Shown here: piece by piece, positions 16,973-50,889 of the stretch
How the letters are laid out: every line of letters begins with the position of its first letter
Position numbering within the stretch: position 1 is the stretch's first letter
Origin: Centroscyllium fabricii
Taxonomy: Eukaryota
Length of the DNA: 64,000 nt
Assembly: GCA_051313645.2 (NCBI GenBank)
Contig: JBNRSN020000014.1
Location: 8,370,001-8,434,000 of the forward strand
Direction: 5' to 3'
Program-made: the position numbers and the translations under genes
Notes under the pieces: model-generated
Database searches by the model: none
What the model was told of the DNA's origin: nothing
The model's input: the letters and a program-made list of their open reading frames with translations, nothing else

Positions 16973-17605
16973 CTAGCACCAGTCGTCCTCATCAGTTTCA
17001 CTGTAGGGTTCATGCATTCCTTTCCTTGTGCCAGGTCCTCTCGTTTGCGTCAGCCCGAGATTGTGATAGTACCCGTTGGGCACCCGCCGCCCGTGCCGCG
17101 AGGGCGACACGGAGGATGACCCTGCCCGAGAAGTCCTGGGCGATCTTCCAGAGCTGGTCGCCACGGCGGCCTCGAAGGTCAGCGTTGCCTCACTTGGCGC
17201 ATCATAGTCGGGGCTGCGGTCGTAGTCCTCGTCGTGAGACCCCAGGTAAGGCTGGGAAAGGTGGGAGCTGGGAGTGGACCACTGGCTGCTGCCCTGCCGA
17301 TTCAGCTGAGGCGACTCGTTGCGGGGGACGGTGGCACTCCTCTCCGTGGCGGGGGTCCTGCCGCTGCCCGTCCGCTCCCCCCTCTGGTGCTCTGGGGGCG
17401 GCGGAGAGTACCTGCGTGGCACGAGGGTTGGCATCCTGCCCTGCTGCTGCTGCTGCGACGCATTCATGGCCTTGCGGACCACAGGGGAGTAGGTGACATG
17501 CGGCCGAGGTGTGGAGGGAGTCGGGGGGAGCTGCCTGCGTCCGCGCCTCGGTGTACTGGTGCCAGAAGTGGAAGGTACTGGACTCCCACTCACAGAACTA
17601 CTGCC
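16973..17605 (-). CDS. CACNA1A: CACNA1A terminal coding exon (human exon 47 equivalent), long isoform
   Basis: Acceptor cgtgtag|GGCAGTAGT after a long pyrimidine tract. The 633 nt read [45 protein letters not shown]...QQQQQ...NGYY...[13 protein letters not shown], matching the Cav2.1 C-terminus (RQLPxTP RIM-BP motif, DDWC PDZ ligand, QQQQQ at the SCA6 position). Confidence 0.96.
17441..17455 (-). repeat. (CAG)5 polyglutamine codon run in exon 47
   Basis: Plus strand reads ctg x5, in frame as QQQQQ after ...[11 protein letters not shown]. Confidence 0.9.
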
Positions 17606-18589
17606 CTACACGAAAATTGAAACAAAGCAAAATCAAAAAAATAAAAAACCAGGAGGAAAAAAACACAGACAGAAAAAACATCGAAGAAAGCAAAGAGATA
17701 ACGAAAGAAAAAAAGGGGGAAGCGACGTTCACAGAACAAAAAAAGCCAAAAGAAAGTAAAAAGAGAAAGTGACGTCTGTAAGTCAAGGGGTTAAAAAAAG
17801 AGCAGACATTGTCCTTTAGTTAACATGGGTATAAAACCGTATAGTTAGGCCATACACATTAAACAGCTTGGAATCTAAAATTGAGATAAAACGGGAAATA
17901 CTATGAATGTTGGAAATCTGAAACCAAAGCAGGAAAAATGCTGGAACTGCGGATATGTCAGTATCTGAAAGAAAAGATGGGTTAATGTTTCTGTGGCGGG
18001 GGGAGGGGGTGGCAGGCTGGAGAAACCTGACCTTCTCCCCTTCACCCTCTGGGCTTGTGCACATCAGTCCCTTAAAAAGGGGGTTTTCTCTGCCCTAACC
18101 GTGAAGGAGCCCCACTCCCCCCCCTTGAAAAGTTAACATCTCCTCCGCTTTCAGAGGCTGGATGAACCTGTTGTTGGTCATTGTTATCCGATATTGACCG
18201 TGCCCAGGTTATCCAGCGAGTCCGGGTACAGACGCAGCAAAATCTCCCTATTAAATCCAGAAACCTCCTTTCTGAACTGACAGATCTCAAGGGCCTCCTC
18301 TCTCTCTCTCTCTAAGATTGTTTTGTTATAATCCTGAGCCACACAAGGTTCAATCCGATAACAACATAAGAATCTTTAGCCTCAGGAAAGGGCTGTTTGG
18401 CCCAACATTGCTTTTCCAAACATCAACCCCAATCTACCCACTTTCTCATCAAATCCCTTCCTCCCTTTGCAAACATATCTATTTATCGTGAACCCAATTA
18501 CACCGTCCACTTCAACACCTTTTCATGGTAATTAATTCCACCGCTCCATCACGCTTTGCGTGAAACCGTCCTGACTTCTTTTCATCGCC

Positions 18590-32836: not shown

Positions 32837-35800
32837 TTGGGCGGGGCTGTAATTACGGTAGATTAGGTGGGGCTGTAATTATAGTAGATTGGGTGGGGCT
32901 GTAATTACAGTAGATTGGGTGGAGCTGTAACTCCGGTAGATTGGGCGGAGCTGTAACTCCGGTAGATTGGGCAGGGCTGTAATTACAGTAGATTGGACGG
33001 GGCTGTAATTACAGTAGATTGGGTGGGGCTGTAATTACGGTAGATTGGGTGGGGCTGTAATCATGGTAGATTGGACGGGGCTGTAATTACAGTAGATTGG
33101 GCGGGGCTGTAATTACAGTAGATTGGGCGGAGCTGTAATTACGGTAGATTGGGCGGGGCTGTAATTACAGTAGATTGGACGGGGCTGTAATTACAGTAGA
33201 TTGGACGGGGCTGTAATTACAGTAGATTGGACGGGGCTGTAATTACGGTAGATTGGGCGGAGCTGTAATTACAGTAGATTGGGTGGGGCTGTAATTACGG
33301 TAGATTGGGCGGGGCTGTAATTACAGTAGATTGGGCGGAGCTGTAACTCCAGTAGATTGGGCGGGGCTGTAATTACGGTAGATTGGGCGGAGCTGTAATT
33401 ACAGTAGATGGGGCTGTAATTACGGTAGATTGGACGGGGCTGTAATTACAGTAGATTGGGTGGGGCTGTAATTACAGTAGATTGGACGGGGCTGTAATTA
33501 CAGTAGATTGGACGGGGCTGTAATTACAGTAGATTGGACGGGGCTGTAATTACGGTAGATTGGACGAGGCTGTAATTACGGTAGATTGGGCGGAGCTGTA
33601 ATTACAGTAGATTGGGTGGGGCTGTAATTACAGTAGATTGGGTGGGGCTGTAATTACAGTAGATTGGGTGGGGCTGTAATTACGGTAGATTGGGTGGGGC
33701 TGTAATTATGGTAGATTGGGTGGGGCTGTAATTACAGTAGATTGGACGGGGCTGTAATTACAGTAGATTGGACGGGGCTGTAATTACAGTAGATTGGACG
33801 GGGCTGTAATTACGGTAGATTGGGCGGAGCTGTAATTACAGTAGATTGGACGGGGCTGTAATTACAGTAGATTGGACGGGGCTGTAATTACAGTAGATTG
33901 GACGGGGCTGTAATTACGGTAGATTGGGCAGGGCTGTAATTACAGTAGATTGGGTGGGGCTGTAATTACGGTAGATTGGGCGGGGCTGTAATTACGGTAG
34001 ATTGGGTGGGGCTGTAATTACAGTAGATTGGACGGGGCTGTAATTACAGTAGATTGGACGGGGCTGTAATTACAGTAGATTGGACGGGGCTGTAATTACG
34101 GTAGATTGGGTGGGGCTGTAATTACAGTAGATTGGGTGGAGCTGTAACTCCGGTAGATTGGGTGGGGCTGTAATTACAGTAGATTGGACGGGGCTGTAAT
34201 TACAGTAGATTGGGTGGGGCTGTAATTATAGTAGATTGGGTGGGGCTGTAATTATAGTAGATTGGGCGGGGCTGTAATTACGGTAGATTGGGTGGAGCTG
34301 TAATTACGGTAGATTTGGCGCAATAGTAATTACGGTAGATTGGGCGGGGCTGTAACTCCGGTAGATTGGGCGGGGCTGTAATTACGGTAGATTGGGCGGG
34401 GCTGTAATTACAGTAGATTGGACGGGGCTGTAATTACAGTAGATTGGACAGGGCTGTAATTACAGTAGATTGGATAGGGCTGTAATTACGGTAGATTGGG
34501 TGGAGCTGTAACTCCAGTAGATTGGACGGGGCTGTAATTACGGTAGATTGGGCGGGGCTGTAATTACAGTAGATTGGACGGGGCTGTAATTACGGTAGAT
34601 TGGACGGGGCTGTAATTACAGTAGATTGGGTGGGGCTGTAATTACGGTAGATTGGGCGGAGCTGTAATTACAGTAGATTGGGTGGGGCTGTAATTACAGT
34701 AGATTGGACGGGGCTGTAATTACAGTAGATTGGGTGGGGCTGTAATTACAGTAGATTGGACGGGGCTGTAATTACATTAGATTGGACGGGGCTGTAATTA
34801 CAGTAGATTGGGTGGGGCTGTAATTACAGTAGATTGGACGGGGCTGTAATTACAGTAGATTGGGTGGGGCTGTAATTACAGTAGATTGGACGGGGCTGTA
34901 ATTACGGTAGATTGGGCAGGGCTGTAATTACAGTAGATTGGATGGGGCTGTAACTCCGGTAGATTGGGTGGGGCGGTAATTACAGTAGATTGGGTGGAGC
35001 TGTAACTCCGGTATGTTAGGCGGGGCTGTAATTACAGTAGATTGGGCAGGGCTGTAATTACAGTAGATTGGGCGGGGCTGTAATTACGGTAGATTGGGCA
35101 GGGCTGTAATTACAGTAGATTGGGCGGGGCTGTAATTACGGTAGATTGGGTGGGGCTGTAATTACAGTAGATTGGACGGGGCTGTAATTACGGTAGATTG
35201 GGCAGGGCTGTAATTACAGTAGATTGGATGGGGCTGTAACTCCGGTAGATTGGGTGGGGCGGTAATTACAGTAGATTGGGTGGAGCTGTAACTCCGGTAT
35301 GTTAGGCGGGGCTGTAATTACAGTAGATTGGGCAGGGCTGTAATTACAGTAGATTGGGCGGGGCTGTAATTACGGTAGATTGGGCAGGGCTGTAATTACA
35401 GTAGATTGGGTGGGGCTGTAATTACGGTAGATTGGGCAGGGCTGTAATTACAGTAGATTGGACGGGGCTGTAATTACGGTAGATTGGGCAGGGCTGTAAT
35501 TACAGTAGATTGGGCGGAGCTGTAACTCCGGTAGATTGGGTGGGGCTGTAATTACAGTAGATTGGACGGGGCTGTAATTACAGTAGATTGGGTGGGGCTG
35601 TAATTACGGTAGATTGGGTGGGGCTGTAATTACGGTAGATTGGGTGGGGCTGTAATTACAGTAGATTGGACGGGGCTGTAATTACAGTAGATTGGACGGG
35701 GCTGTAATTACAGTAGATTGGACGGGGCTGTAATTACGGTAGATTGGGCGGAGCTGTAATTACAGTAGATTGGGTGGGGCTGTAATTACAGTAGATTGGG

Positions 35801-38575
35801 TGGGGCTGTAATTACAGTAGATTGGACGGGGCTGTAATTACAGTAGATTGGGTGGGGCTGTAATTACGGTAGATTGGGTGGGGCTGTAATTACGGTAGAT
35901 TGGGTGGGGCTGTAATTACAGTAGATTGGATGGGGCTGTAATTACAGTAGATTGGACGGGGCTGTAATTACAGTAGATTGGACGGGGCTGTAATTACGGT
36001 AGATTGGGTGGGGCTGTAATTACAGTAGATTGGGTGGAGCTGTAACTCCGGTAGATTGGGTGGGGCTGTAATTACAGTAGATTGGACGGGGCTGTAATTA
36101 CAGTAGATTGGGTGGGGCTGTAATTACAGTAGATTGGGTGGGGCTGTAATTACGGTAGATTGGGTGGAGCTGTAATTACGGTAGATTTGGCGCAACAGTA
36201 ATTACGGTAGATTGGGCGGGGCTGTAACTCCGGTAGATTGGGCGGGGCTGTAATTACGGTAGATTGGGCGGGGCTGTAATTACAGTAGATTGGACGGGGC
36301 TGTAATTACAGTAGATTGGACAGGGCTGTAATTACAGTAGATTGGATAGGGCTGTAATTACGGTAGATTGGATAGGGCTGTAATTACGGTAGATTGGGTG
36401 GAGCTGTAACTCCAGTAGATTGGACGGGGCTGTAATTACGGTAGATTGGGCGGGGCTGTAATTACAGTAGATTGGACGGGGCTGTAATTACGGTAGATTG
36501 GACGGGGCTGTAATTACAGTAGTTTGGGTGGGGCTGTAATTACGGTAGATTGGGTGGGGCTGTAATTACAGTAGATTGGGTGGGGCTGTAATTACAGTAG
36601 ATTGGGTGGGGCTGTAATTACAGTAGATTGGACGGGGCTGTAATTACGGTAGATTGGGCAGGGCTGTAATTACAGTAGATTGGATGGGGCTGTAACTCCG
36701 GTAGATTGGGTGGGGCGGTAATTACAGTAGATTGGGTGGAGCTGTAACTCCGGTATGTTAGGCGGGGCTGTAATTACAGTAGATTGGGCAGGGCTGTAAT
36801 TACAGTAGATTGGGCGGGGCTGTAATTACGGTAGATTGGGCAGGGCTGTAATTACAGTAGATTGGATGGGGCTGTAACTCCGGTAGATTGGGTGGGGCGG
36901 TAATTACAGTAGATTGGGTGGAGCTGTAATTACAGTAGATTGGGCGGGGCTGTAATTACAGTAGATTGGGCGGGGCTGTAATTACAGTAGATTGGGCAGG
37001 GCTGTAATTACAGTAGATTGGGCGGGGCTGTAATTACGGTAGATTGGGCAGGGCTGTAATTACAGTAGATTGGACGGGGCTGTAATTACGGTAGATTGGA
37101 CGGGGCTGTAATTACAGTAGATTGGGCAGGGCTGTAATTACAGTAGATTGGGCGGAGCTGTAACTCCGGTAGATTGGGTGGGGCGGTAATTACAGTAGAT
37201 TGGACGGGGCTGTAATTACGGTAGATTGGGTGGGGCTGTAATTACGGTAGATTGGGTGGAGCTGTAATTACAGTAGATTGGACGGGGCTGTAATTACGGT
37301 TGATTGGACGGGGCTGTAATTACGGTAGATTGGGTGGGGCTGTAATTACGGTAGATTGGGTGGGGCTGTAATTACGGTAGATTGGGTGGGGCTGTAATTA
37401 CGGTAGATTGGGTGGGGCTGTAATTACGGTAGATTGGGTGGGGCTGTAATTACGGTAGATTGGGTGGGGCTGTAATTACGGTAGATTGGGCGGGGCTGTA
37501 ATTACGGCAGATTGGACGGGGCTGTAATTACAGTAGATTGGGTGGGGCTGTAATTACGGTAGATTCGGTGGGGCTGTAATTACGGTAGATTGGTCGGGGC
37601 TGTAATTACGGTAGATTGGGTGGGGCTGTAATTACAGTAGATTGGGTGGGGCTGTAATTACAGTAGATTGGGTGGGGCTGTAATTACAGTAGATTGGGTG
37701 GGGCTGTAACTACAGTAGATTGGACGGGGCTGTAATTACAGTAGATTGGACAGGGCTGTAATTACAGTAGATTGGACAGGGTTGTAATTACAGTAGATTG
37801 GGCGGGGCTGTAATTACGGTAGATGGGGCGGGGCTGTAATTACGGTAGATTGCGCGGGGCTGTAATTACAGTAGATTGGGTGGGGCTGTAATTACAGTAG
37901 ATTGGGTGGGGCTGTAATTACAGTAGATTGGGCGGGGCTGTAATTATAGTAGATTGGGTGGGGCTGTAATTATAGTTGATTGGGTGGTGCTGTAATTATA
38001 GTTGATTGGGTGGTGCTGTAATTACGGTAGATTGGACGGGGCTGTAATTACGGTAGATTGGACGGGGCTGTAATTACGGTAGATTGGACGGGGCTGTAAT
38101 TACGGTAGATTGGACGGGGCTGTAATTACGGTAGATTGGGCGGGGCTGTAATTATAGTAGATTGGGTGGGGCTGTAATTACGGTAGATTGGGTGGGGCTG
38201 TAATTATGGTAGATTGGGTGGGGCTGTAATTACGGTAGATTGGGTGGGGCTTTAATTACAGTAGATTGGACAGGGCTGTAATTACGGTAGATTGGGTGGG
38301 GCTGTAATTACAGTAGATTGGACAGGGCTATAAATATGGTAGATTGGGCGGATCTGTAATTACAGTAGATTGGGCGGATCTGTAATTACAGTAGATTGGG
38401 CGGATCTGTAATTACAGTAGATTGGGCGGGGCTGTAATTACAGTAGATTGGATGGGGCTGTAATTACAGTAGATTGGACGGGGCTGTAATTACAGTAGAT
38501 TGGATGGGGCTGTAATTATGGTAGATTGGGCGGGGCTATAAATATGGTAGATTGGGCGGATCTGTAATTACTCTA
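32837..38575. repeat. Tandem array of a 26-bp unit (about 220 copies)
   Basis: Consensus GTAGATTGGRYGGGGCTGTAATTACR; rare variants recur at exact multiples of 26 bp; edges are degenerate. Confidence 0.98.
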
Positions 38576-38828: not shown

Positions 38829-39064
38829 CTGTCTATGGGGGACACACTCGCGGCCTGCACTTGGAGATCGGGACCATCGCCTGTCCCTCGATCGAGGTCT
38901 GCTGTACTCATGCCGTTCCTGGGAGTAGCGCTCCTTGTCGGATGATGTGTGGTGGTGGTGGTGATGGTGATGTTTCCTATCCTTGGGTCTGCCTCGTTCT
39001 CGATCCTTCTCTTTTGGGGGGAGGTCGCCTGACTGTGTTGTGGTACTGAGGTCTGTTCCAAGCC
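38829..39064 (-). CDS. CACNA1A: CACNA1A exon 46 equivalent (poly-His exon)
   Basis: Acceptor gatatag|GG and donor CAG|gtgggt; 236 nt, phase 1 to 0. Reads (G)[46 protein letters not shown]...[17 protein letters not shown], closely resembling human Cav2.1. Confidence 0.96.
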
Positions 39065-39078
39065 CTATATCAATGAAA

Positions 39079-40763
39079 TAACAACAGAAAATGCTGGAAA
39101 AACTCAGCAGGCCAGGCAACATCCGTAAAGAGAGAAATATAGATTTGACGTTTCGGGTTAGGACCCTTTGTCAAAACTGAAGCAAGGAAATGAAACAGGT
39201 GGGAAGGCCGGGGGAGCTGGGAGTGAACAAAACGGAAGAGAAAACAAAAAAGAAAAGACATTAAGAGGTTTTCAAAATGAGACGAGATGGTGATGGGGCT
39301 GGGGACAGGAGACAGCTGTAGATTAGGCATGAAAAGCACTGGCAGAATGGGAGGTGGCTGCCATATGGGAGAGAGAGAGAGAAAATAAAGAGAGAAGGGA
39401 GGCCAAATAAAAGGTGTGGATAAAAATAGGTAACAATATAATGGGGGCCGAAGTAATGATCTGAAATTGTTGAACTCAATATTGAGTCCGGAGGGCTGTA
39501 AAGTGCCTAATCGGAAGATGAGGTGTTGTTCCTCGAGTTTATGCTGAGCTTCGGTGGAACAATGTAATAGGCCGAGGACAGAGAGATCAGAGTGGGAGTG
39601 AAGCGGAGAATTAGTGACAGGCGACCGGGAGCTCCGGGTCACCCTTACGGACTGAACGGAGGTGTTCCGCAAAGCGGTCACCCAATCTGCGTTTGGTCTC
39701 CCCAATGCAGAGGAGACCGCATCGTGAGCAGTGAATACAGTATACCAGATTGCAAGAAGTACAAGTAAATCGCTGTTTCACCTGGAAGGGGTGTTTGGGG
39801 CCCTGGACAGTGGGAAGGGGGGAGGTATAATGGCAGGTGTTACATCTCCTGCGCTTGCACGGGAAGATGCCGAGCGAAGGGGAAGGGGTGCTGGGGGTAC
39901 TGAAGGAGTGGACTAGGGTGGCTCGGAGGGAGCGGTCCCTACGGAATGCTGAAAGGGGAGGGGAGGGGAAGATGCGTTTGGTGGTGGGATCACGTTGGGG
40001 ATGGCGAAAATGGCGGCGGATGATCCGTTGAATGTGGAGGCTGGTGGGATGAAAGGTGAGGACAAGGGGAACCCTATCGTGGTTCCGGAAGGGAGGGGCA
40101 GGGATAAGGGCAGAAGTGTGGGAAATAGAACGGACACGGTCGAGGGCCGTGTCAACCATGGGGAATCCTCAGTTGAGGAAAAAGGAAGACATATTGGAAG
40201 CACTGGTGTGGAAGGTGACATCGTCAGAGCAGATGCGTCAGAGATGGAGAAACTGGGAGAATGGAATAGAGTCCTTACAGGAAGTGGGGTGGGAGGAAGT
40301 GTAGTCCAGGTAGTTGTGGAAGTCAGTGGGCTTGTAGTGAATGTTGGTCAATAACCTATCCCCAGAGATGGAGACGGAGATGTCGAGGAAGGGAAGAGTC
40401 GGAGATGGACTATGTGAAGGTGAGGGAAGGGTGGAAATTGGAGGCAAAGTGAATGAAATTGTCGAGTTCAGCGCGAGAGCAGGAAACGGCGCCGATACAG
40501 TCATCAATGTACCGGAAAAGGGAGGGGACCCGTGTAGGACTGGAACAAAGAGTGTTCCACATATCCCACAAAAAGGCAGGCATAGCTGGGACCCATGAGG
40601 GTATCCATAGCAACACCTTTGATTTGGAGGAAATGAGTGGAGTCAAAGGAGAAGTTGTTCAATGTGAGAACAAGTTCAGCAGGTGGAGGCGGGTGGTGGT
40701 GGACGGGGACTGGTCGGGCCTCTGTTCAAGGAAGACGCGGAGCGCCCTCAGGCTATCCTGGTA
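39079..40763 (-). mobile_element. 5'-truncated Penelope-like retroelement (RT + GIY-YIG), 15-bp TSD
   Basis: Fragments LFRYIDDCIG (RT), LPFLDISV...HYKPTD...SSHP (thumb) and NLVYCIHCSRCGLLCIGETKRRLGDRFAEH (GIY-YIG). CCTATATCAATGAAA at 39064-39078 and 40764-40778. Confidence 0.93.
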
Positions 40764-41049
40764 CCTATATCAATGAAAGCTGATTATTTAGACAAAGAAA
40801 GAGAAATCGGAAAATGTTTAGAAGGAAAGATTTGCATTTATACAGCACCGTATCTTTTCTCTCAGAAACGTCTCAATATATTTTACATAGAATTATTTTG
40901 AAGTAAGGCACATAGGGAAAAATGACAGCTATTTTAGACATTGATTTCCTAAGCCACCGTCCTCCCAGTGTTTCATCTTCAAATAATGTGGGCACCCTGG
41001 CACGTCACATAATGAAAGAATCACAGGTTAATTGATGTCGACATGCATC

Positions 41050-41590: not shown

Positions 41591-41891
41591 GAACCCTAAA
41601 AAAGATTCTCACCTTTGCCATGTTGTGAGACACTGTTTAGACGGCAGTACCAACTAAGAATAATGAAGGAAAGCACTGGCAACCCGCCCTGTCTAGAACA
41701 ACTTTATCAGCCTAACTTTGATTTAACTTCCATTAGGTTATTTAAAAATCTCCTTATTTCCAATGGTAAGTTTTTTTATATGAATATATACAAGTACAGA
41801 AAGAGACATTGTTGAAGGTTAGAAGAATAAGCAAAGATGGAGGTTGATGGAACACAATGGTTCCTCATACTGAGACCATAGCTTGTCATAT

Positions 41892-42179
41892 TGTAGCATA
41901 GCCACTAGGGGGAGACACTCTGGTCTCCCCAGGATGTTAGAATCCACATTCCAGAGTTGGTCCCGCCCCTGTCTCCCCATTGGGTAGTTGGATCAACAGT
42001 TCCGGTTCCTGATTGGTCCTGCGGGCTGTCAGTCAAAAGCCCCATGATGCCTTGCGGTTTCGCGCCTTTTGTAAGTTAGTCGTGTTTGGATTGAAATGAA
42101 TAAAGACCTGTTATAGCTTGCTCCGCGATCTTTCGACGTCTTATTGATTTTAAAGAGTGGGGAACTGCCGTTCCCTACA
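41892..42179 (+). repeat. 5' LTR
   Basis: TG...CA ends, AATAAA, and about 16 mismatches to the 3' LTR counted by eye (about 94% identity). Confidence 0.95.
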
Positions 42180-42181
42180 AT

Positions 42182-42193
42182 TGGTGACCCCGA
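42182..42193 (+). promoter_or_regulatory. Primer-binding site complementary to the tRNA-Trp 3' end
   Basis: TGGTGACCCCGA, 2 nt after the 5' LTR. Confidence 0.85.
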
Positions 42194-42850
42194 ATGTCAG
42201 TCACAGAAGGTACTGACCAGAACACGAGCCCCGAGGCCGGGCAATGTGAAAGGCCGTCGATCATCAGCCTCCCCGCCTTTTGGGAGCACCAAGCAGCCGC
42301 TTGGTTTCTGCAAACGGAGGCCCAGTTCCAGCTCAAACGCCTCAACAACGATGCGGACCGCTACCTCCTCGTCGTTTCGGCTCTGCCCAGCCACATTATC
42401 GTGGACCTGCTATGGGACCCGTCACAAGCTAACAGGTACGCTGCCGTTAAGAAGCGACTGCTTCAGGCTCACGACCTACCGGAGGACATACGGGCCCAGC
42501 AACTCTTTGAACTCTCGGACTTAGGCGACTCCACGCCTACGCGCCTGATGAATCGCACGTCGCCCTCCTCGGGGACCACAAAGACTGCCCATTATTTCGG
42601 GCGCTATTCATCAGTCTGCTCCCGCAGCCGGTACAATCGGCTTTAGCAAACGTTAAAGGCGGGACCTACGCCGAGTTGGCCATCGCAGCGGACCGCGTTT
42701 GCCTTTGCTCACCCGCTAACTGCAACCACGAGGCTCTCCGCCCCTACGCAGTGGGCAACGCCTCAACCCCAGCCGGGACTCTGTTATTACCAAACACGCT
42801 TCGGCCCGAAGGCTCATCGCTGCCGACCACCTTGTTCATTCAATGGCAGA
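42194..42850 (+). pseudogene. Gypsy gag (frameshifted)
   Basis: LPAFW...AWFLQTEAQF N-terminal motif, LGDSTPTRLM, and the CsRn1-type knuckle CYYQTRFGPKAHRCRPPC in a downstream frame. Confidence 0.8.
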
Positions 42851-43243
42851 GGTTGTGCCCAAACCCCATGCTCCGAACCTGCACCACCGCCAGGGCCCAG
42901 CCACTGCTAACGCCATTGGCACAGCGGGAGAGCTGCTGTACGTCATGGACTCACTTTCCGGGCGAAGGTTCCTCTGCGACACCGGGGCTCAATGCAGCAT
43001 TCTACCAGCTACGCAGCTCGATCGACAGGCAGGCTGCAGTGGCCCGCCCCTTGTGGCGGTGAATGGCGCAGCCAAAGCCACTTTCGGAAAACGGCGGGCT
43101 GAGATTCGCCTGGGTGGCCAACGGTTTACCTGGGATTTCATTACGGCCAATGTGGAACATCCATTGCTTGGTGCGGATTTCCTATGTGCCCATGGCCTGC
43201 TCATGGACGTCCGGGGCAGACGCCTCATGGATGCGTCTACCTT

Positions 43244-43737
43244 GATATTGGAAACAAGATGGCGGCGCGCATAGACGCAGTGGCTTTGCGTCTCCCGATG
43301 TTTGTGTCCCTGGTTCCCGCACTGTTCCTGGAGAGGATGGCGGGGTCGGTGGAGTAGAGCACCGGTGCTCCTCAATCGGGGCACCGGTGCTGAACAAGCC
43401 GTCGTGGTCGTCTGAGCGCCGGGGCGCTGAGAGCGGGCTCAGAGAGCCGCGGGGCCGTGGGGCTCGGAGGGCCGTGGGGCCGCCGTCGGGCGCCGAGAGC
43501 TGCGAGGCCGTCGGGGGCCGGGAGCTGCGAGGCCGTCGTGGCTGGAGCGCCAGGGCCTGCGTGGCCGGCACCGGGCGCATCGCGGCTGCAGCGCCGGGTG
43601 GTCCTGGTGGGATGGAATGGATCAGACTGGGACTAAAGGACATTTAATAATTTGGGAGATTGCATGTTTGCATTTCGTTGTTTTGTGTATGTTCACTTTA
43701 CAATGACAATAAATTGAATCTTATCTTATCTTATTAT
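43244..43737 (+). mobile_element. Short non-autonomous retroposon (Rex1/Babar-like ends) nested in Gypsy pol
   Basis: TACCTT TSD at 43238-43243 and 43738-43743. 5' CAAGATGGCGGCG, GC/CpG-rich body and 3' gacaataaattgaatcttatcttatcttatt tail. Removing it restores the pol frame (DASTFASLPC...). Confidence 0.75.
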
Positions 43738-45891
43738 TACCTTTGCCTCTCTGCCCTGCCAGCGGAGCGACAGCCAACCCCTCGTGGGCTCCTGCTCTCC
43801 TCCTCTTCGCGACAAATATGTGTGCTTACCGGCCGATTTCCTGGCCATTACACAGCCGACCTTTTCAGATGTGGCGGCCAAACATTGCGTCCAGCATCAC
43901 ATCGCAACTACTGGCCCACCGGTTTTCGCTCGAGCCAGGCGCCTCGACCCCACAAAAATGGCAGTGGCCAAGAAGGAATTCTCTGCCATGGAGAAGTTGG
44001 GGATCATTCGTCCTTCAAATAGCCCGTGGTCGTCCCCGCTCCACATCGTTCCCAAGCCCGGTGGCTGCTGGTGACCGTGCGGCGACTACAGGCGCCTCAA
44101 TGACACTACCATGCCGGACAGATACCTGGTGCCACATATTCAAGACTTTTTGGCACACCTGGCGGGTAAAACAATTTTTTTTAAAGTCGACCTCATCCGA
44201 GGATATCACCAGGTCCCGGTCCATCCGGACAACGTCCAAAAGACGGCGGTTATTACCCCTTTTGGACTCTTTGAATTCCTCCGTGTGCCTTTCGGGTTAA
44301 AGAATGCGGCACAGGTTTTCCAACGGCTGATGGACTCTCTCCTTCGGGACTTGGACTTTTTATTTGTATATCTCGATGACATTTTGGTTGCTAGCGCGGA
44401 TGAATCTCAACATGTTGTGCATTTGCGTTCCCTTTTTCAGAGATTGGCCCACCATGGCCTAATTGTAAACCTGGTTAAATGCCAATTCGGCCTTACTGAA
44501 ATTGATTTTTTAGGTCATCACATCTCCCCGGCGGGAGCCATCCCTTCACCCTCTAAGGTCCAAGCGGTCACAGATTTTCCCCAGTTCAGCTCGGTTAAGT
44601 CACTCCAGGAATTTCTGGGAATGGTAAATTTTTATCACTGGTTCCTCCTCAATGCTGCCTCCATCATGCGCCCCCTGTACGAGGCCACTAGGGGTAGGAC
44701 CGGCAAGGATAGCCTTCAGTGGTCGGCTAATAAGGCTGAGGCTTTTCGCCTCACTAAGTCGGCCCTGGCCGAAGCCACCCTTTTGACCCACCCCATCCCG
44801 GGCACCCTGCTTTCACTCACGACGAACGCCTCGGATCATGCCATTGGCGCCGTTCAGCAACAATGGGTTGATGGTGCCTGGCAGCCCCTTGCATTTTTTA
44901 GCCGCCAACTGTGGAAAAATTAGCTCTCGTATAACACGTTCGACCGGGAACTGCTAGCTCTTTTTCTTGCAGTGCGGCATTTTCGTTTTCTCTTGGAGGG
45001 CCGTCCGTTCACTGCCTACGTGGACCATAAGCCCCTCATTTTTGCTATGTCCAAAGTCATGGAGCCCTGGTCAGGTCGCCAACAGCGGCACCTGAATTTC
45101 ATATCAGAATTTACTACGGATATCCGTCACGTGTCCAGTAAGGATAATGTCGTTGCCGACTGTCTCTCCCGTCCTTCCCTCCATGCGGTCCATGTTGGTG
45201 TCGATTACGCAGAAATGGCGTGCGCCCAGCGGGTGTACGCTGAGCTGCAGGCTCTTCGTTTTGTGTCCACCGGCCTGACCCTAGCGGACATCCATTTTCA
45301 TGCAGCCGGCACGACTCTTTTGTGTGACGTTTCCGTTTCCACCCCCAGGCCCTTAGTGCCCACCTCCTGGCGCAGGCGCATTTTCGGTTTGGTCCATGGG
45401 CTCTCCCACCCAGGCATGCGGGCTTCTCAGAAGCTTCTGTCAGCCAAATTTGTTTGGCCGGGCCTGCACAAGGATGTGCGGGACTGGACTAACACCTGCC
45501 AGGACTGCCAACGCGCTAAAGTCCATCAGCATACTAAGGATCCCCAGCAAACTTTTCCGGTGCCAGAGTGGCGTTTTGATCATGTCCATGTTGATTTGGT
45601 TGGCCCCGTGCCCCATCACAGGGTTTCACCCATCTCCTTACCATCGTAGACCGTACCACTAGGTGGCCGGAGGTCGTACCCCTTTCTTCCACCACTACGG
45701 CCGACGTGGCACGCGCCTTTATTTTTTCATGGGTGGCCCGGTTTGGGGTTCCGTCGGACATGACTTCCGACAGGGGCCCACAGTTTACCTCCCAGCTGTG
45801 GAGCGCAATCGCCACTGGTCTGGGGACGCAGTTGCACCGCACAACTACTTATCATCCACAGGCAAACGGTATTTGCGAACGTTTCCATCGC

Positions 45892-48434
45892 ATCAAAAGG
45901 GAAATTAGAGAAGCGTGCAATAAGAGCCCAGCTGTCATCATAGGTGACTTTAACTTGCATATAGATTGGACTAGCCAAATTAGTAAAAATAATGAGGAGG
46001 AGGAATTCCTTGAGTGTGTAAGGGATGGTTATCTGGATCAATATGTTGAGGAACCAACTCGGGATCAGGCTATCTTGGACTGGGTACTGTGCAATGAGAA
46101 GGGACTAATTAGTAATCTTGTTGTACGGGGACCCTTGGGTCAGAGCGATCATAACATGATCGAATTCTCACTCGAAATGGAGAGCGAAGAAACTGACTCA
46201 GAGACTAAGGTCCTAAATTTAAATAAGGGGAATTATGATGCCATGAGACGGGAATTAAGTAAGACTGATTGGGCAGCGTTTCTGGGGGGACTGGCGGTGG
46301 ATAAACAATGGCAAGCATTTAAAGACAGAATGGCAGAATTGCAGAAATTGTTTATACCAATCTGGCATAAAAAGAAATCTAAAAAGGTGACTCAACCGTG
46401 GATAACAGGGGAAATTAGGGACAGCATAAAATCCAAAGAAAGGGCATATAAAATAGCCAAAAAAAGCACCAGACCTGAAGATTGGGAACAGTTTAGGATA
46501 CAACAAAGGAGGGCAAAGGGATTAATCAGGAGGGGAAAAATAGCGTACGAAAGTAAGCTTGCGGCAAACATAAAATCTAACTCCAAAAGCTTTTACAAGT
46601 ATATTAAGAGGAAAAGACTGGTGAAATCCAAAGTCGGTCCATTACAGTCAGATTCTGGGGAATATATAATGAGAAATAAGGAAATGGCAGACCAATTAAA
46701 TGCATATTTTGGGTCTGTCTTCACAAAGGAAGACACAAAAAACCTCCCTGAGATATCAGGAACCATAGGGACAATTGGAAGGGAGGAACTGACAAAAATC
46801 AATATCTCTAAGGATATGGTGTTGGGGAAGCTAAAGGGACTGAAGGCTGACAAATCCCCAGGGCCTGATAACATGCATCCTAGGGTACTCAAGGAGGTGG
46901 CCCTAGAGATAGCAGATGCTTTAAGGATAATTTTCCAGAATTCGATAGACTCGGGAACAGTGCCCATGGATTGGAGGGTAGCTAACGTTACCCCACTATT
47001 TAAAAAGGGGGGTAGGGAAAAAGCGGGTAATTACAGACCTGTAAGCCTTACATCGGTGGTGGGCAAAATACTAGAGTCCATCATTAAGGATGTAATAGCA
47101 GAGCACTTGGCAAATGGGGACAGGATAGGACAGAGTCAACATGGATTTACAAAAGGTAAATCGTGCTTGACGAATCTATTGGAATTCTTTGAGGAAGTAA
47201 CTGGTAAAATAGATGGGGGAGAGCCAGTAGATGTGGTGTACCTGGACTTCCAAAAAGCCTTCGATAAGGTCCCACATAAAAGATTAGCATGTAAAATCAA
47301 GGCTCATGGGATAAGGGGAAAAGTATTGACGTGGATAGAGAACTGGCTGGCAGATAGAAAACAGAGAGTTGGAATAAACGGCTCATTTTCTGAATGGCAG
47401 GCAGTAACAAGTGGAGTACCTCCGGGATCTGTCCTGGGTCCCCAGCTGTTCACAATTTATATTAATGACCTAGATCAGGGAATCGGATGCAGCATCTCCA
47501 AATTCGCAGACGACACTAAACTAGGAGGGGGGGTAGGCTCAGAAGAAGAGATCAGGAAGCTCCAGAGCGATTTGGACAAATTGGGGGACTGGGCAGATAC
47601 ATGGCAAATGCACTATAATGTGGATAAGTGTGAAGTTATCCACCTTGGGGGCAAAAACGGGAGGGCAAATTATTATTTAAATGGCAATAGATTGGGAGAT
47701 GGGGAAGTACAGAGAGACCTGGGTGTTCTTGTGCACCAGTCATTGAAGGCGAGCATGCAGGTGCAACAGGCGGTCAGGAAGGCAAATGGTATGCTGGCCT
47801 TCATATCAAAAGGGTTAGAATACAGGAACAAGGACACCTTACTACAGCTGTACAGGGCACTGGTGAGACCACACCTCGAGTACTGTGTGCAGTTTTGGTC
47901 GCCTCATCTGAGGAAGGATGTTCTTGCCATGGAAAGAGTGCAGCGGCGATTCACCAGGCTGATACCAGGAATGGCAGGAATGACCTATGAGGAGAGACTA
48001 TGTAGTTTGGGGATGTACACACTGGAGTTTAGAAGATTGAGAGGGGATCTCATAGAAACATATAAAATTCTGACAGGCCTGGACAGACTAGATGCAGAAG
48101 GAATGTTTCCGATGGCAGGAGAGTACAGAACTAGGGGACACAGTTTAAGGATAAGGGCTAAACCATTTAGGACAGAGATGAGGAGGAATTTCTTCACCCA
48201 GAGAGTGGTGAACCTGTGGAACTCACTGCCACAGAGGGCAGTGGACGCCCGCTCATTAAATATATTTAAGAGGGAATTAGATATATTTCTGCAGGCAAAA
48301 GGGGTTAAAGGTTACGGAGAGAAGGCAGGGACGGGATACTGAACTGAAGGATCAGCCATGATCTCAATGAATGGCGGAGCAGGCTCGAAGGGCCGAATGG
48401 CCTACTCCTGCTCCTATCATCTATGTATCTATGT
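45892..48434 (+). mobile_element. Young 5'-truncated CR1 LINE nested in the Gypsy integrase
   Basis: Uninterrupted ORF2 portion (APE C-terminal GDFN and SDH motifs, RT FADD) to the stop at 48342, then a ctatgtatctatgt tail. Integrase resumes exactly (ERFHR|TLKASL). Confidence 0.95.
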
Positions 48435-49179
48435 ACCCTTAAGGCCTCACTCCATGCCAGCCTGGTCGACGTCAATTGGTTGGACAGGCTCCCTTGGGTC
48501 CTGCTGGGGTTGCGCTCCGCGCCCAAGGACGACCTCGCGTGTCTTCTGCCGAACTCATTTTTGGACAACCTTTGCGCATTCCAGGAGAGTTCCTCCCCTC
48601 CATCACCGAGAATTGGTCAGCCGGCGAGCAGCTCACCCGGCACAATGACGCCGCACATCGTTTCCTTCCTGTGCCCACCTCTTGGCACGGTGCCCGGTCG
48701 TCCCACATACCCACCGAGCTCCGCAGGGCACGATTTGTTTTTGTGCATCGCGATGCCCATAGAACTCCTTTACAGGCACTATATACTGGCCCTTTTAGGG
48801 TGCTGGAGGCTGGCGACAAGACTTTCCTCCTCGCGGTTGGGGGCCGACAGGACCGCGTTTCCATCGACCGGCTTAAACCGGCCCATTTGGCCCCTGCCTC
48901 GCCTGAACAGTTTTCCCGGGCCCCGCGCCAGGAGCGTTTCTCTGTCCCGAGCGTGCCCCCAGCGGGTCCCGCGCTGTTTACCCCCCCTGGGTACAGCTCC
49001 AGCTCTTGCTCCACCTCCGGGTTTCTCCCCGGTCTCACCTCCTACTCCTGCGGCACAGCCTCCCTCCAGTCCTGTTCGCGGATCCCCGGTATCGGCCTAC
49101 CGCACTCGTTGCGGCGGCCTCATCATGCTTCCTTGGAGGTTGACGTCTCATGTTCATGAGGATTCTGGGCGGGGGCGTG

Positions 49180-49467
49180 TGTAGCATTGTCACTAGGGGG
49201 AGACACTCTGGTCTCCCCAGGATGGTAGAATCCACATTCCAGAGTTGGTCCCGCCCCTGTTTCCCCATTGGGTAGTTGGAGCAACAGTTCCGGTTCCTGA
49301 TTGGTCCTGCGGGCTGTCCGTTAAAAGCCCCATGATGCTTTGCGGTTTCGCGCCTTTTGTAAGTTAGTCGTGTTTGGATTGAAACGAATAAAACCCTGTT
49401 TAAGCTTGCTCCGCTATCTTTCGACGTTTTATTGATTTTAAAGAATGGGGAACTGCCGTTCCCTACA
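49180..49467 (+). repeat. 3' LTR
   Basis: Matches the 5' LTR and is followed by the ATAT TSD. Confidence 0.95.
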
Positions 49468-50007
49468 ATATGAAGGAAGGTAAGCAGTGAAGGATGTTCC
49501 CTGCAAGGCTAATTTCCAGGATCCTTCTATGTTTGTTCCTCTCCAGTTTTCTTTCCTGTTTTCCCTCCTGTCCCGAGTAATACTAGGGTGAGATTCCATG
49601 GGTGTAAGGTGTCACCTGGCACCTCACCCGAATGGCCATTCTTCGTGTACCAGCCTAGATAATGCTTGCCATTCAATGTCCGAGAGCATCACATCCAAAC
49701 TTGATCTTGTCCCAAACCAAAATCCACACACCTGCACTTTCCAGAAGCAGTCATTATGCAGCGATCAGGAGCTGGATTGCTGGCTGTTTTTTCCCCTCCC
49801 TAGCTCAAGGACGCTGAACTATCGTGCCCGTAATGTCGCCCTGGTTAACCGCAGCTAACAGCACAGACCAAGGACTGGTCCGGAGTCCTGCACGCCTCAG
49901 TATGACACAAGACGGTTCTGTCATCAACTGAGCCAGAGCAGATGCTCCTCCCGTATATTTTAATGTGACTGGAATGTGACAATAATTCCACTCAGAACTG
50001 ATCTATA

Positions 50008-50696: not shown

Positions 50697-50889
50697 CTGT
50701 GTCAGCATCTGTATATCGGCTCAATGACCTTTCGGACGTCCTGTGAACCCTCTCCCTGCGGCGATGGGGCCTTTGTGACTCCTCCGGGATGACCCGTTCT
50801 AGTGAGTAGTCATCCAGCCGCATTCCTTTGGAGCGCTGGTGGCCCAGTGTGGATGCTGACCTCTTAATCGGACTCGTGTCTTCGATAGT
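50697..50889 (-). CDS. CACNA1A: CACNA1A exon 45 equivalent
   Basis: Acceptor catcgcag|ACT and donor ACAG|gtatga; 193 nt, phase 0 to 1. Reads [64 protein letters not shown](G); the phase matches the next exon. Not in the supplied ORF track. Confidence 0.95.

Follow-up and report, generated by a model that had tools for sequence, protein, structure and literature searches.

What becomes of a gene when a retrotransposon lands on one of its splice acceptors? The closest precedent for the locus described here is NF1 c.1642-1_1642insAluY, for which the accessible part of the report describes a sense-oriented AluY, a duplication of 11 nt whose last bases are the acceptor AG, and skipping of the exon (PMC3219598). 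Introners and other transposon-derived introns, in the portion of the literature available, also take their 3' AG from a target-site duplication, and derive mostly from DNA transposons with inverted repeats (PMC11282704). For Penelope-like elements, the accessible sections describe a pLTR in partial tandem and an optional tail of 30-40 bp in endonuclease-bearing (EN+) members (PMC8557442, PMC3846280), a CX2-5CxxC linker between RT and EN in Neptune and Nematis that is absent in Penelope and Poseidon (PMC8557442), and 5'-UTR introns tied to the pLTR in Penelope and Chlamys (PMC8557442). CaV2.1 is described, in the available part of the source, as choosing between +e47 and -e47 forms at the boundary of exons 46 and 47 (PMC9864995). 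A literature search without AFIDI as a search term, and with most subscription journals outside its scope, listed neither this locus nor any Penelope element that had duplicated an acceptor.

How does the shark locus compare? The window, a 64,000-nucleotide stretch of the Centroscyllium fabricii genome (positions below are window positions; all features lie on the minus strand), carries a Penelope-like element in gene sense at the 3' splice site of CACNA1A exon 46. As in the NF1 case, going by the accessible part of that report, a sense retrotransposon sits at an acceptor and its target-site duplication copies the AG. Unlike the AluY, which has a poly(A) end and whose exon is skipped in the patient, the Penelope-like element has a U-rich end that is predicted to rescue the exon; also unlike the AluY, it appears established and splits a tandem acceptor. 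With introners, as described in the available text (PMC11282704), the locus shares a working AG from the duplicated target and upstream signals from the element; unlike them, it lengthens an existing intron and creates none, and the element gives no needed donor. The junction of exons 45 and 46 predates the insert, as a contig of relative C and the elasmobranch gene models indicate. Our preferred reading, to which we assign a probability of about 0.68, is a tolerated insertion with a pre-fitted tail, in which exon 45 is likely spliced to the acceptor copy at exon 46 and an isoform with five additional residues, +AFIDI, has likely been lost. The splicing in this reading is predicted throughout from genomic DNA.

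The duplicated acceptor and its history

Exon 45 of CACNA1A (50697..50889) is followed by the donor CAG|gtatga after 50697, exon 46 (38829..39064) is an intact exon of 236 nt with the donor CAG|gtgggt, and the coding part of exon 47 (16973..17605) has a tandem TAG/GGCAG acceptor (17605, 17600). The exon number used in the preliminary description is borne out by upstream exons mapped in order over 600 kb of neighbouring sequence (37a/37b, 38-43, 45, 46, 47). The 78 codons of exon 46 match shark and ray CACNA1A at 72-78 of 78 positions, with 78/78 in several relatives; exon 47 is open, exons 46 and 47 are both intact, and exons 19, 20 and 47 are 80-91% identical to the tested models of sharks and 73-88% to those of rays, which marks the host as a shark outside the tested set. 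This assembly holds no second copy of exon 46.

Several other features of the gene were recorded. The tandem acceptor of exon 47 is kept in this shark, one AG giving 210 extra residues and the other an immediate stop. Exon 45 encodes RERVHRT (50746-50748), in contrast to RERGHRT in each of the 22 other elasmobranch models; a second sample agrees with the window at this place. Near 8730987 of G000:C446 (minus strand) lies a GT-AG intron with the donor GTATCCTT and the branch-site-like TACCTTCAT, which we take to be of U12 type by consensus. A 26-bp satellite of ~221 copies with a palindromic 12-mer (32837-38571) begins ~260 nt past the donor of exon 46. The intron that holds the element also contains a block of 7.6 kb (~41870-49467) in which a LINE-like piece breaks into gypsy-like RT/integrase frames (labels given by eye); since a contig of relative B joins 41867 to 49468, this block too is a lineage-specific insertion, the second in the intron. 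About 300 nt upstream of exon 47, at ~17900-17965, inspection by eye shows a Penelope-like tail that is older and decayed, lies in gene sense and includes an acceptor-like TTTCAG.

The evidence for duplication is direct. An exact 15-bp direct repeat lies at 39064-39078 and 40764-40778, with a spacing of 1700 bp; the 15-mer occurs only twice in the surrounding 664 kb, against a chance of ~1e-9 per site. Read on the minus strand, the repeat consists of the 14 terminal bases of the intron, ending in AG, followed by base 1 of exon 46. The downstream copy (39064..39078, AG at 39066-39065) holds the sole in-frame acceptor remaining at exon 46. The upstream copy (40764..40778, AG at 40766-40765) leads from exon 45 into the joined reading frame DT-GTRIA*, which closes at the TGA at 40748..40750, whose bases are those of the family majority (14/14). 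Next to it the native intron end is orphaned (40782..40820), with a long native pyrimidine tract and the candidate branch points A40818 and A40788 (TNA motifs only). Homology of the element to other copies starts at 40762 and ends at 39075-39074. The initial four bases of the repeat (TTTC) coincide with the 3' end of the element's own family (...TTATTTC), and the end of the element is therefore ambiguous, between 39079 and 39075. At the 5' junction an extra T (40763..40763) stands where 24/24 longer family copies have C. Flanking duplications of 8-17 bp accompany 6 of the 28 other family copies (one locus dropped for insufficient flank), against 0.7% of 756 mismatched pairs. The preliminary description had claimed a Penelope-like insert, an exact duplication of the acceptor plus first exon base with copies 1700 bp apart, and the GTRIA* reading; all three agree with these comparisons, and the repeat is a true target-site duplication.

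Could the insert be an artefact of assembly, or heterozygous and rare? S1 and S2, the two samples of this species that carry it, come from one study and possibly from one animal, one of them being possibly the source of the assembly, and contig depth is 4-12, which leaves some room for this idea. Against it, contigs of S2 span both junctions and those of S1 the 5' junction, all with 0 differences; S1 depth does not rise at 40764, contrary to what is expected for an empty allele; and, at 4.3% divergence from its family, the copy is no recent arrival. An artefact or heterozygote is thus barely credible. Relatives supply the other half of the history. A contig of relative C runs through 40994-40764 and continues with 39063-38760, an empty site with a single 15-mer and without the element. 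Relatives B, D and H break at the same base: contigs of B and D match up to 40764 and then continue for >500 further letters, and in H depth begins at 40764. Divergence of the nearby intron is 3-5% in B, C and D and 12.5% in H. Among the matches listed, one further sample of relative B has no piece across the insertion site, and a presumed RNA run of relative B has no piece on exon 45 or 46. With S1 and S2 contigs crossing the junctions and an empty site in relative C, the misassembly considered in the preliminary description is dismissed and the empty site it envisaged in relatives is found. The insert appears to be established in this species.

A Neptune-type Penelope-like element

What kind of element is it? 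Judged by its motifs, the insert (39075..40762, 5'-truncated and decayed) is a Neptune-type EN+ Penelope-like element. The copy retains a broken RT, the thumb, a Cys linker between RT and endonuclease (CKRRRCNTC at 39833..39859, a CX4CxxC motif as defined in the accessible part of PMC8557442) and a broken GIY-YIG endonuclease remnant at 39460..39760 (NLVYCIHCSRCGLLCIGET). Compared with the endonuclease-bearing elements of the Neptune clade, as the available portions of PMC8557442, PMC3846280 and PMC4209133 describe them, it is 5'-truncated and broken. Pfam applied to the window copy alone detects neither RVT_1 nor GIY-YIG and returns one weak unrelated match. The sister copy L036, to which the window piece is 85% identical, has an open frame of 579 aa with RVT_1 at E 5e-5 and GIY-YIG at E 0.007 (both under Pfam cut-offs), and its top Atlas clusters are RVT_1/HTH_animal/GIY-YIG at 0.97. 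Two Cys lie between GIY and YIG, at the place of a CCHH finger (NLVYCIRCSRCGLFYIGET in L036); the window copy has the same Cys, and the likeness concerns the Cys pair only. The partial-tandem pLTR, with its 3' end immediately before the ORF start in 18 of the 20 family loci found with an ORF start, and the 30-nt tail, present in 15/29 family copies, are family-level features that the window copy itself does not have. It differs from the per-column family majority by 4.3% (73/1686 columns; 3.8% outside CpG), similar to sister copies. These figures come from copy searches that scored 40/2392 and 40/4848 candidates of a large family, a sample biased to the closest copies.

The 3' repeat contains a minimal hammerhead-like motif, read by eye at 39143..39178, in which the core-like bases are kept in 29-31 of 31 aligned copies and helix II folds. 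Rfam gave no hammerhead match, with four weak chance matches. The core is a U3-A8 variant in 31/31 aligned copies; such a variant is described for Schistosoma Cercyon elements in the accessible part of PMC4209133. Three of the eight private changes in the last 200 nt of the window copy lie in the predicted helix I arms, and these might have silenced self-cleavage adjoining the acceptor. Elsewhere in the family, copy L023 carries an inverted copy of the family tail at its 5' junction. A scan for bacterial promoters and terminators was empty and is irrelevant here.

Which acceptor is likely to work

Which of the two copies would the spliceosome choose? Position matrices were built from 39 acceptors and 37 donors of CACNA1A in this genome, hand-picked from protein alignments, with one U12-type intron dropped and two unclear acceptors left out. 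Over -20..+1 the acceptor at 39064 scores 9.4 bits and that at 40764 scores 5.3 (leave-one-out median of real sites 10.2), with a bootstrap difference of 2.7-5.7. Over -40..+1 the values are 12.7 and 10.5, the bootstrap interval of the difference, -0.9 to 5.2, including zero. For the region -40..-15 alone, the element tail reaches 5.6, a score attained by 1.2% of 20,000 random sequences, the native sequence 3.5, random DNA -2.9 and poly(A) -6.6. By score, then, the matrices rank the element tail above the native sequence as acceptor context. The U-rich tail (39079..39126) offers the candidate branch points A39104 (-40) and A39079 (-15), both marginal; among the 39 real acceptors, a TNA falls within -18 to -45 in 37. 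Exon definition favours an acceptor with a near donor. The donor of exon 46 lies 236 nt from 39064 and 1936-1951 nt from the two stranded AGs, and the median exon length is 112 nt among 34 measured CACNA1A exons (long exons 19 and 20 excluded). We infer that exon definition, with the donor 236 nt away, favours the acceptor at 39064, and that the stranded AGs are probably little used, their early-stop products being degraded by NMD. As the U-rich tail is predicted to supply a branch point and tract, splicing of exon 45 to exon 46 is likely kept.

An NF1-like outcome has to be considered at this point: inclusion of exon 46 may have been weakened, with skipping or use of an out-of-frame CAG at 39095-39094, and the insertion fixed by drift. 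The accessible NF1 report does link an Alu that duplicated an acceptor to skipping (PMC3219598), the branch-point candidates are marginal, and the CAG stands 29 nt upstream of 39064. This CAG, which would give AFSVVISLI*, nevertheless scores 2.6-5.0 bits, above only 1-3 of the 39 real sites, and a weakened exon 46 sits poorly with its 78/78 identity to several relatives and an open exon 47. Skipping would be predicted to give DT-GQ* or DT-VVL*, with the stop in the last exon and a short-tailed channel. We hold this outcome to be very unlikely.

Was the tail adapted to its new role? Over its last 52 nt the element shows no departure from the family majority, and an adapted tail was not kept as a reading. 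Zero changes in this stretch have a probability of ~0.10-0.13 under neutral decay, so neither adaptation nor constraint is demonstrated. The element tail would thus be pre-fitted, and is not visibly adapted. The preliminary description had held that the element's tail supplies the branch point and pyrimidine tract, and that a retroelement sequence was co-opted as splice signal. The first idea stands for everything upstream of -14, which is element-derived, and fails for the tract from -14 to -8, which is native and lies inside the duplication; the second has less behind it than was put there, since the tail is the family's own and shows no sign of adaptation. In family copies with the tail, the U-rich tract leads to a CAG of the element itself, scoring 7.3-10.9 bits (12 occurrences at 11 loci; real median 10.8), and this CAG lies ~58 nt before the ORF ATG. 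As a guess, and by analogy with the 5'-UTR introns of Penelope and Chlamys, the U-rich tract may serve the element itself as an acceptor signal.

Do the stranded acceptors still matter? A candidate cryptic donor, CCG|gtacat after 40513 (40507..40515), is predicted to close a pseudo-exon of 252 nt (from 40764) or 267 nt (from 40779). At 6.5 bits it ranks above 13 of 37 real donors and is the only real-like donor within 400 nt; the stop of the 252-nt pseudo-exon stands 237 nt before this donor, making it a predicted NMD target. A 252-nt poison cassette exon is possible on these grounds. Were the stranded acceptors used to a meaningful extent with this donor, the isoform choice would now lie between protein and NMD, tuning CaV2.1. 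In keeping with such use, the stranded intron end retains its tract and both AGs, and relative H, 12.5% diverged further upstream, has no listed difference within 40764-40800. The retention itself is expected at this age, the probability of no change in two copies being ~0.4-0.5, and the donor occurs family-wide, which speaks against selection at this locus; a privately gained donor was rejected as a candidate on the same ground. Meaningful use of the poison exon is, on balance, rather unlikely. As for the truncating acceptor proposed in the preliminary description, the gene strand of the element has no AATAAA or ATTAAA, only one CATAAA at 39543, and with these signals missing a new terminal exon within the element is unlikely and was set aside. 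Our preferred reading remains splicing of exon 45 to the acceptor at 39064.

A probable tandem acceptor, now split, and the predicted AFIDI isoform

The native intron end holds a second AG, overlooked in the preliminary description: TCAG, at 40780..40781, 15 nt before ATAG. The ancestral exon 46 site appears to have been a tandem acceptor. The upstream AG corresponds to +AFIDI in other elasmobranch models, and here would read AFIDIGTRIA*. Read from TCAG, the duplicated bases double as FIDIG codons of the alternative exon extension. Twenty-three elasmobranch CACNA1A annotation models were retrieved (15/26 main-cluster members covered), of which 22 cover the junction; AFIDI or AFIDV is present in 7 of these 22, from Chiloscyllium (2), Stegostoma (2), Rhinoraja, Hypanus and Pristis. 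Two isoforms of the sawfish Pristis differ solely by AFIDI, and annotated isoform pairs that differ in this way are usually backed by RNA reads. Among 176 non-elasmobranch proteins, one has a 5-residue insert at the junction, of unrelated sequence. None of 36 matches among Logan protein fragments has an AFIDI or GTRIA junction, and the four inspected run from exon 45 into unrelated sequence. The choice resembles the +e47/-e47 choice, as described in the available part of PMC9864995, in being a short-distance selection of acceptors that shapes the same C-terminal tail, and the e47 choice is itself present here at 17605/17600; unlike it, the AFIDI choice lies one exon earlier, keeps the frame and is seen only in elasmobranch models.

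The element entered 1 nt past TCAG. This leaves both old AGs, together with the long native pyrimidine tract, 1.7 kb away from exon 46, and both AGs reach the same TGA. The copy at exon 46 has GTTA in place of TCAG and retains only the ATAG acceptor, which closes this route to +AFIDI. The insertion is predicted to have split the tandem pair, with loss of the +AFIDI isoform. Was there anything to lose? TCAG may have gone unused in this lineage, leaving the insertion neutral at the isoform level. Its matrix score is low (3.5-7.1), AFIDI is absent in 15/22 models, including all five Scyliorhinus canicula isoforms seen, and the single insert among the 176 non-elasmobranch proteins is unrelated. 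Yet the low score goes with a site used in relatives' models; with so small a matrix, real sites can be under-called, and a low score is not proof of disuse. AFIDI/AFIDV, moreover, recurs with near-identical residues in five genera, sharks as well as rays, and the sawfish pair is distinguished by it alone. Disuse of TCAG in this lineage is therefore an unlikely alternative to the predicted loss of +AFIDI.

How might the insertion have come about? It would have proceeded by target-primed reverse transcription, primed through the 4-nt TTTC microhomology between the element's end and the acceptor pyrimidines. The element landed 1 nt after TCAG, splitting the tandem acceptor, and the 15-bp duplication copied ATAG. 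The element's unchanged U-rich end would then provide a branch point and lengthen the pyrimidine tract of the acceptor at 39064, which exon definition, across the 236 nt to the intact donor, would bring into use; the stranded AGs would be little used and their early-stop products removed by NMD. On this account the insertion would have survived because its tail happened to fit, as a poly(A) tail would not. A bolder version, which we consider quite doubtful, makes the Penelope 3' repeat a portable acceptor context, perhaps the end of the element's own 5'-UTR intron, with which these elements could persist at host acceptors as poly(A)-tailed ones could not; here +AFIDI, a form common to sharks and rays, would have been erased and its acceptor turned into a poison exon. 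If true, an isoform switch of CaV2.1 would have become an NMD-based control on the level of a synaptic calcium channel.

What does the locus mean more widely? Should splicing prove simply normal, and the relatives prove to be without AFIDI, it would be a tidy but minor case. The locus offers a natural experiment, with empty-site relatives as controls, on the cost of a tolerated retrotransposon hit on a splice acceptor. It suggests a rule by which the survival of acceptor insertions would be set by the 3' end of the element, U-rich as opposed to poly(A). A further pointer is to a choice, in sharks and rays, between CaV2.1 tails with and without AFIDI, one species being predicted to lack it.
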